NCBI GenBank assembly: GCA_965242985.1
Contig: OZ251520.1
Coordinates: 860,492-924,491 of the forward strand
From: an uncultured candidatus Porisulfidus sp.
Lineage (GTDB): Bacteria > Pseudomonadota > Gammaproteobacteria > Poriferisulfidales > Poriferisulfidaceae
Direction: 5' to 3'
DNA: 64,000 nt
Shown here: positions 4,670 through 4,850 of the stretch, in pieces
Layout: every line of letters starts with the position of its first letter
How positions within the stretch are numbered: the first letter of the stretch is position 1
Notes under the pieces: generated by a model
Databases searched by the model: none
What the model was told of the DNA's origin: nothing
The model's input: only the letters and a program-made list of their open reading frames with translations
Made by a program: the position numbers and the translations under genes

Positions 4670-4850
4670 CGGCTGGTATAATCCCGCCCGCTTTCAGGGC
4701 GAAAGCGAGCCACCCCTTTTCATGAAGACCCGGCGGCGGCAGGCAATGAAGAGCGCCGTTCCGCGCGCGCTCCTTGCGCGTGCAGTCCTGAATACGGGGG
4801 GGGGGGGCAGGAACCGCTCCGCGCGCCGGGCGCCCGGCGCGCAGCCGCTT
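4670..4850 (+). promoter_or_regulatory. Leader/promoter module copy B (TGgTATAAT at 4674-4682, G12 tract 4796-4807) upstream of autotransporter gene 1
   Basis: Conserved blocks tataatcc[ca]gcccgc ... gggcgaaagcga ... ctgaatac-G12-...tccgcgcgccgg shared with copies A and C. Confidence 0.6.

Follow-up and report, generated by a model that had tools for sequence, protein, structure and literature searches.

What do the long runs of guanine do that stand upstream of two paralogous autotransporter genes, here called gene 1 and gene 2, in a 64,000-nucleotide stretch of the genome of an uncultured candidatus Porisulfidus sp. (contig OZ251520.1, positions 860,492 to 924,491; hereafter the window)? 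An earlier note on this DNA had described two such G-tracts as lying inside open upstream reading frames and had proposed an in-frame translational switch, rather than a promoter switch, in which translation starts before the tract and yields an extended signal peptide. Our analysis indicates that these G-runs very likely serve a family of autotransporter adhesins as switches that are prone to slippage. As to how they act, we tentatively favor, at close to an even chance and from sequence comparison, a phase-variable mechanism in which the tract is part of a translated leader open reading frame (ORF) whose frame is set by tract length. Control at the level of the RNA is the main rival to such a leader ORF switch.

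The window has a GC content of 73.8% and contains three G-runs of 11 or more, all of them on the plus strand (4601-4612, 4796-4807 and 30381-30391). Windows of nine consecutive G occur 11 times compared with 2.55 expected, and none of 100 shuffles reached 11. All three G-tracts belong to copies of one homologous cassette of about 150-185 nucleotides (nt), with cassettes A and B arranged in tandem upstream of gene 1 and cassette C upstream of gene 2. The G12 at 4796-4807 is present as the earlier note had described it, while the third cassette, with its G12 at 4601-4612, had been missed there and only two tract loci had been counted. The parts of the three cassettes are listed below.

4490-4498, plus strand: extended -10 box of cassette A (TGcTATAAT), homologous to the boxes of B, C and six loci in relatives
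4601-4612, plus strand: G12 tract of cassette A, with TAG at 4614-4616 directly after it
4632-4650, plus strand: (CCGG)x4.75 repeat in cassette A, identified from the sequence and the cassette alignment
4674-4682, plus strand: extended -10 box of cassette B (TGgTATAAT), predicted promoter of gene 1 from the homologous boxes, with the transcription start likewise predicted
4689-4707, plus strand: 5' hairpin CGCTTTC-AGGGC-GAAAGCG of cassette B, at the predicted 5' end of the transcript
4722-4748, plus strand: leader starts ATG 4722 and ATG 4746 of cassette B, both in the gene 1 frame at G12
4796-4807, plus strand: G12 tract of cassette B, inside the leader ORF
4821-4842, plus strand: hairpin H1 of cassette B, GCGCGCCGG-GCGC-CCGGCGCGC, with the stem kept and the loop varying among copies
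30234-30239, plus strand: -10 box TATAAT of cassette C, from the cassette alignment
30381-30391, plus strand: G11 tract of cassette C, in a frame open into gene 2
30407-30426, plus strand: hairpin H1 of cassette C, GCGCGCCGG-ACGT-CCGGCGC, whose 5' arm could alternatively pair with CCGGCGCGC in gene 2 codons 2-5

From 5' to 3' the cassette consists of a TATAAT box (extended by TGn in A and B), CC(C/A)GCCCGC, the hairpin CGCTTTC..GAAAGCG (lengthened in cassette C by a 17-nt insertion), a stretch of low conservation, the G-run preceded by AATAC, then CTAGAAA or CTAAAAG, a run of pyrimidines and TCCGCGCGCCGG. ATG 4746 is found only in cassette B, A and C reading CTGAAT at this position. In cassette A the tetranucleotide repeat at 4632-4650 takes the place of the loop and 3' arm of H1 and constitutes a second potentially slippery repeat.

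Related metagenome contigs allowed us to follow this cassette beyond a single genome. The FtsZ sequences nearest to that of the window are 86-90% identical, belong to uncultured Gammaproteobacteria and occur only in metagenome assemblies of the European Nucleotide Archive (ENA). A search with the beta-domain revealed a family with many members per genome. One contig of 1.88 Mb carries P0159, which corresponds to a fragment of gene 1, together with five further family members, and if the genome of this contig is the source of the window, at least seven family genes would be present in it to judge by these matches. Among the proteins of the window, the C-terminal fragment of gene 1 was the only one matched in the protein collection (P0159). 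The 1.88-Mb contig with P0159 probably belongs to the source genome itself or to one very closely related. Six homologous loci were readable in related metagenome contigs, L009 being left out because of a scaffold gap upstream of its gene. All six have the cassette before homologous autotransporter genes, with tracts of G10 (L003), G11 (L005 and L006) and G13 (L007 and L008) as well as an interrupted G5CG5 (L004). Tract lengths across paralogous and homologous cassettes are 10, 11, 11, 11, 12, 12, 13 and 13 (one assembled sequence per locus), and the tracts of the window (G12, G12 and G11) as well as those of the relatives (G10-G13) exceed the approximately 8 G or C that mark slippage-prone length. 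Cassettes that keep the tract at the same site diverge as far as L008 and precede surface-protein genes only. Two DNA patterns of the cassette were also scanned against genome contigs and metagenome contigs, and neither gave a match.

In gene 2 and in all six loci the start ATGACCGGCGC(G/A)CG (MTGAR..) is located 45-69 nt past the tract, with indels of 3, 6 and 24 nt in between; it is present in seven of the eight gene-proximal cassettes, gene 1 being the odd one with ACA. Gene callers use the ATGACCGGCGC start in relatives, and MTG(A/V)R is the N-terminus of ten family proteins that were retrieved. This conserved start places the normal start of the family downstream of the tract, and the tract itself, as far as the alignments tell, normally in the leader and not in a signal peptide of the ESPR type. 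Start placement by gene callers is inconsistent for P0161, P0156, P0168 and L002-9856.

Gene 2 represents the typical arrangement, as summarized by two features.

30307-30396, plus strand: leader ORF of gene 2 containing the tract, from ATG 30307 to TAA 30394-30396 as read from the ORFs
30455-34837, plus strand: gene 2, an autotransporter with the start ATGACCGGCGCG (MTGAR...) and a typical signal peptide (Pfam PF03797, E 1.6e-11)

With its PF03797 beta-barrel and N-terminal signal peptide, gene 2 has the makeup of a type Va autotransporter, and the GC content at third codon positions (GC3) climbs to 0.97 at its ATG. ATG 30307 is the sole ATG of the leader, lies out of the gene 2 frame and opens an ORF that ends at the TAA just past the tract. 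The frame that reads G11 as RGGGS is open into the signal peptide as had been proposed, but the upstream in-frame codon at 30353, previously taken for ATG, is GTG and finds no support in the other cassettes.

Gene 1, the paralog of gene 2, deviates from this arrangement in several respects, the positions of which are given here.

4722-9434, plus strand: passenger ORF of gene 1, comprising leader ORF, signal peptide (predicted cleavage after 4946) and repeats
4875-4877, plus strand: ACA codon where the family has its start ATG, from alignments with gene 2 and six homologs
9330-10080, plus strand: zone of frame changes, about five successive +1; the ortholog P0163 is continuous across this zone
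10076-11764, plus strand: C-terminal fragment with the autotransporter beta-domain, 78.7% identical to the C-terminus of gene 2

The earlier observation that gene 1 has no ATG, GTG or TTG at the start position of its relatives holds for gene 2 and all six homologs as reference. Four codons of the n-region are missing compared to relatives, and the only downstream in-frame start candidates, TTG 4902 and TTG 4917, are both within the hydrophobic core. A start upstream of the tract is the sole canonical route to a gene 1 signal peptide with a charged n-region. ATG 4746 is indeed in the gene 1 frame through the tract (..NTGGGGRNRS..), but it is not the only upstream start as the earlier note had it, since ATG 4722 and GTG 4653 share the frame. 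Between approximately 9330 and 10080 the coding frame changes in the order 0>1>2>0>1>2, and these frameshifts cut the beta-domain off from the passenger. All of the frame changes go in the same direction within 750 bp, and the remaining 6 kb of the gene are intact. The public protein P0159 (562 amino acids, aa) is 100% identical over residues 2-562 to the translation from 10079, with ATG 10076 providing its first residue. The defect is local to gene 1, because the housekeeping genes tested in the window are intact, about 20 of them matching NCBIfam profiles end to end, which rules out generally poor assembly as the source of the frameshifts. The damage reflects either a pseudogene or a badly resolved repeat, i.e. 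a local assembly problem in a repeat-rich gene. As assembled, gene 1 is a damaged gene without the normal start of the family and an exception among its relatives.

The evidence for a leader ORF comes from the reading frames around the tracts. In each of the eight gene-proximal leaders, one or more ORFs with an ATG start extend into the tract. Cassette A, which has no adjacent gene, is devoid of ATG codons in its leader. The nine leaders together contain 16 ATGs (8.9 expected), 15 of which reach the tract. Every gain or loss of one G alters the fate of the leader frame, 45-69 nt upstream of the autotransporter starts. In cassette B, tracts of G9, G12 and G15 fuse the leader ORF to gene 1, and other lengths lead to a stop at TAG 4906 or at the stop codon 4952. 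In cassette C, the leader ORF would terminate with the TGA of ATGA (30456-30458) if the tract were G12, and would be fused to gene 2 if it were G10 or G13. The frames after the tract are identical in C, L003, L005, L006 and L007: one is the open gene frame, one meets TAA at -61 or -67, and one ends with the TGA of ATGA. This stop-start overlap is present in all seven cassettes that have the start, and it is where the leader ORF terminates in L004, L005 and L001-5753, the last being a copy from the more distant lineage described below. At their present lengths the leader ORFs are fused in B and L003, stop early in C, L006 and L007, reach the ATGA overlap in L004 and L005 and run on out of frame in L008. 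Such mixed states among copies are the pattern expected of independent switches. The indels of 3, 6 and 24 nt that separate tract and start among the copies also count in favor of a translated leader, as do the conserved GC hairpins that extend over the region as far as position -1 of the start.

A hidden Markov model (HMM) of the cassette detected homologs of the start region in a contig that is more distant and has 69.6% GC; its adhesin genes have poly-C instead of poly-G tracts (C10, C24, C30 and C7GC6). These tracts are located 40 nt past gcAGGAGGAgtccATG, a strong Shine-Dalgarno (SD) sequence with a start codon (MRHSRTTLALAVPA-Pn). The C24 copy (L002-9856) reads in frame into the signal peptide, a fusion that the gene caller has annotated as such. 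Both interrupted and thereby 'locked' copies, L004 (G5CG5) and L001-5753 of the poly-C lineage (C7GC6), end the leader ORF exactly at ATGA.

Several further observations were made in the poly-C lineage. An insertion element at L002 3497-4859 is located inside a poly-C tract, the two remaining parts of which are C10 and C30. Its terminal inverted repeats are ATAAGCGTCAACTTG / CAAGTTGACGCTTAT, and it encodes a protein of 345 aa on the minus strand. If translated, C24 (L002 9896-9919) and C30 (L002 4860-4889) would encode 8-10 consecutive prolines. Consecutive-proline motifs stall ribosomes unless elongation factor P (EF-P) acts, and stalling at these prolines would add an extra layer of control in this lineage. 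A 526-aa gene with an AAA_22 domain is encoded on the opposite strand near the poly-C adhesin genes (L001 10-1590; L002 1217-2797, 7975-9555 and 12998-13746), with a conserved TTGACA..TATAAG region between it and the adhesin gene.

The mechanism that we tentatively favor would combine these elements as follows. Behind a strong -10 box, each gene-proximal cassette would specify a leader of approximately 170-215 nt from this box to the start codon, within which an AUG-initiated leader ORF would run into the G-tract, the conserved ATGACC of the gene following 45-69 nt further on. With each G gained or lost, ribosomes translating the leader would shift among three frames. In the first, they would stop immediately at the TAA or TAG beside the tract, the GC hairpins over the start region would stay closed and expression would be low or off. 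In the second, they would stop at the TGA of the ATGA overlap, and termination followed by reinitiation at the gene's own AUG would result in expression. In the third, in-frame fusion would produce an N-extended preprotein. Gene 1, having lost its own AUG, could therefore be produced only in the fusion frame, which is its frame at G12. The sequences themselves show the anatomy of the cassettes, their conservation, the differences in tract length among copies and what these do to the reading frame, while the transcription start, the translation of the leader ORF and the identity of the ON frame are the elements that we infer. The more elaborate proposal, that the phase-variable upstream ORF is an independent three-state translational switch present once for each member of the multi-copy family and kept in both the poly-G and the poly-C lineages, is one we regard as possible without calling it probable.

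A number of points weigh against a translated leader ORF. By shuffling, the probability of an ATG ORF that reaches the tract is approximately 0.45-0.57 per leader, with a product of 0.003 for eight copies or 0.056 for four lineages; the cassette copies are related by descent, and the ATG statistics are borderline. Open frames of the length seen here are expected by chance in DNA of 74-80% GC (0.74-0.89 per copy), and the GC3 of the N-extensions, at 0.71-0.82 versus 0.94-0.97 in the genes, is not coding-like. Codon periodicity was absent from the segment between tract and start, but the signal peptide used as a control likewise showed none, and the test has no power. The leader AUGs of the window lineage lack an SD sequence, as do most genes of the window. 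Upstream of the tract the leader is poorly conserved, with GCG in the shared start-codon column in three of nine copies, and only two locked copies exist. The tract lengths are calls from consensus assemblies that may be off by one, and those of the relatives come from long-read assemblies at 8-14x coverage, a kind of data prone to errors in homopolymer length. The remaining points concern the conservation of the segment between tract and start as DNA, and they are also the ones that speak for the main rival.

According to this rival, the tract is an undecoded part of the 5' untranslated region (UTR) and acts as an RNA- or transcript-level rheostat, its length altering mRNA amount, folding, processing or pairing with a small RNA (sRNA), while the conserved ATG is the sole start. 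Examples would be pairing of the G-run with the CCUUUCC just downstream or the GCGCGCCGG arm choosing between two partners. The tracts are located approximately 100-140 nt downstream of the conserved -10 box, a position between this predicted box, from which the transcription start is derived, and the conserved ATG that fits such control. The segment from tract to start has a mean variability of 0.13, about equal to that of the signal peptide, and forms a 9-bp hairpin GCGCGCCGG-N4-CCGGCGCGC with a conserved stem and a variable loop. A second hairpin extends to position -1 of the start, and the start region is covered by GC hairpins. The pyrimidine run after the tract can pair with the G-run and varies only between C and U, which preserves the pairing with G. 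The 5' arm of H1 can pair in two ways, inside the leader or with gene codons 2-5; in cassette C this arm (30407-30415) has possible partners at 30420-30426 in the leader and at 30459-30467 in gene 2, and pairing with the latter would enclose the start codon. This dual pairing may explain the conservation of ATGACCGGCGCGCG at the nucleotide level. The GC3 of the leader is also in agreement with an undecoded tract, and precedents for repeats acting on the RNA exist in uspA1 (PMC7302503), tlpB/RepG (PMC8295292) and hmw (PMC12721329).

Even so, control of the RNA alone offers no account of the tract-reaching ATG ORFs in every gene-proximal copy, of the stop codon after the tract or of the locked copies in the ATGA frame, nor does it account for the strong SD sequence and ATG before the poly-C tract in the sister lineage. 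The leaders fold no better than their shuffled versions (z -1.4 to +0.6). Rfam gave no leader match at gathering thresholds, with only chance-level hits to mir-341 and HOTTIP_3 (E ~0.7-1) in E-value scans. The lack of compensatory base changes in the hairpins as analyzed by RNAalifold counts against both the leader ORF switch and its RNA-level rival. Overall we consider RNA-level control unlikely, although it survives better than the other alternatives.

The proposal of the earlier note taken literally, in which both genes start before the tract with a long ESPR-like signal peptide and are ON in frame and OFF in the other two frames, appears distinctly improbable. Gene 1, its key case, has no other canonical start and is at the same time broken by the approximately five frameshifts. 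Cassette B (G12) and L003 (G10) are in the fused frame and the fused L002-9856 of the poly-C lineage has its strong SD sequence upstream, but fusion is found in just two of the eight copies. In P0156 and P0168, Leu or Ala stands where the start Met would be, and the called N-termini are longer; against these stand the start ATG in seven of the eight cassettes and the ten retrieved proteins with their common MTG(A/V)R beginning. For gene 2 the in-frame start would be GTG, its only leader ATG being out of frame. The N-extensions comprise 34-51 residues before the conserved start position, are rich in Arg, Pro and Gly, are not conserved between cassettes and have the low GC3 mentioned above. The extended N-termini of gene 1, gene 2 and L003 matched no Pfam family, ESPR included, even at E<=10, which rules out their membership in ESPR. 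The likeness of the two N-extensions, suspected earlier to follow from DNA conservation, does reflect homologous DNA read in the same frame, and the one-G difference between the two loci with its 2-nt compensation is confirmed, the frame being kept by -1 nt, -1 G and +2 nt. Two elements of the in-frame translational switch stand: the upstream frames that contain the tracts are open, and the tracts may plausibly act in translation; the likeness to an extended signal peptide gives way to a leader ORF switch, given the conserved start after the tract.

We regard it as very improbable that there is no switch at all. In that case the tracts would simply be inherited along with a cassette that multiplies through duplication or gene conversion, gene 1 would be a pseudogene in decay, and chance or homopolymer miscalls would account for the frame relations. 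The lost start and the frameshifts of gene 1 are in line with this view, as are the open frames expected by chance, the low-coverage long-read assemblies of the relatives and the relatedness of the copies by descent. It is countered by a hypermutable tract of 10 or more G that has been kept at one site up to L008, by its poly-C counterpart in the other lineage, by its restriction to surface-protein genes, by the intact housekeeping genes that argue for a generally sound assembly, and by tract lengths that vary among copies as slippage predicts. Least probable of all is a second promoter with a -35 element (C/T)TGAAT before and a -10 element TAAAAG or TAGAAA after the tract, the spacer of which would be set by the number of G, since the A/T-rich hexamers, though fairly conserved in DNA of 75-80% GC and reading TTGAAT in L006 and TTAACA in L007, are weak (-35 with 1-3 of 6 matches in most copies, -10 without T at position -7), are separated by 13-15 nt at present lengths instead of 16-18 nt, are replaced by CAGGAA/TGGAAA at the -10 in B and L008 and are missing from the poly-C lineage, where the tract is inside an SD-led ORF, while a far better -10 box is present upstream in every copy and scans for sigma-70 promoters and terminators around the tracts were empty, in agreement with the earlier view that this is not a promoter switch.

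The surroundings of the cassettes and other homopolymers can be described briefly. The region 21266-30162 of the window contains three consecutive ORFs for TonB-dependent receptors, with cassette C directly after the last one, and gene 2 is followed by a tRNA gene (34967-35039) and then by the genes for L25 and Pth. Among the relatives, L004 has a C12 tract at 6858-6869, intergenic before a gene for 118 aa, and L006 a C8 tract at 6766-6773 near the 5' end of a sigma-70 gene.

If the leader ORF switch is real, it would mean that contingency loci exist in a gammaproteobacterial lineage that is uncultured, very rich in GC and represented by metagenomes only, and that an entire family of adhesin genes is equipped with switches, every gene having its own. 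To our knowledge, repeat switches are located within the gene itself or its promoter, and a repeat that controls its gene by setting the frame of an upstream ORF, together with an overlap of stop and start codons, would be an added mechanism. For annotation, frames that depend on tract length can be mistaken for pseudogenes or long signal peptides.

Comparison with known systems reveals partial likenesses. In Neisseria opa and pilC and in Haemophilus influenzae lic1, repeats in the 5' coding region with alternative starts provide a frame-dependent translational switch. The proposal of the earlier note and the copy L002-9856 look alike to these, with the repeat between the start codon or codons and the signal peptide or mature protein. 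In contrast, the family of the window lineage keeps a separate start past the tract that overlaps with TGA, and except for gene 1 the ORF containing the tract is upstream. Bordetella fim as well as Neisseria porA and opc have homopolymers in the promoter spacer. They share with the present cassettes a homopolymer upstream of a surface-protein gene, but here the tract follows the sole good -10 box by approximately 100-140 nt and is flanked by poor hexamers only 13-15 nt apart. ESPR similarly precedes a classical signal peptide as an N-terminal extension in autotransporter or two-partner-secretion (TPS) proteins, whereas the extensions found here do not contain its motif by Pfam at E<=10.

The closest counterparts act on the RNA. 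In Moraxella catarrhalis, a G(n) tract 29 bp upstream of the uspA1 ORF alters the mRNA level (PMC7302503). As in the cassettes, a poly-G of approximately 8-12 stands a few tens of nt before the ORF of an autotransporter-type adhesin, and its length changes expression (PMC7302503), as is proposed for the cassettes. The uspA1 tract acts on the mRNA level without a leader ORF, whereas here the tract is 45-69 nt upstream and inside an ATG leader ORF, has a stop codon and then a stop-start overlap behind it, and recurs across a gene family. The G-repeat in the leader of Helicobacter pylori tlpB is the target of the sRNA RepG (PMC8295292), and the repeat in the 5' UTR of H. influenzae hmw forms a hairpin that is cut by RNase III (PMC12721329). 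Both have a variable repeat transcribed in the 5' leader, a C/U-rich or G-rich partner and control after transcription, features that the present cassettes would share under the RNA-level reading. They differ in that the pyrimidine partner here is in cis and directly follows the tract, and neither system has anything that corresponds to the frame logic of the leader ORF.
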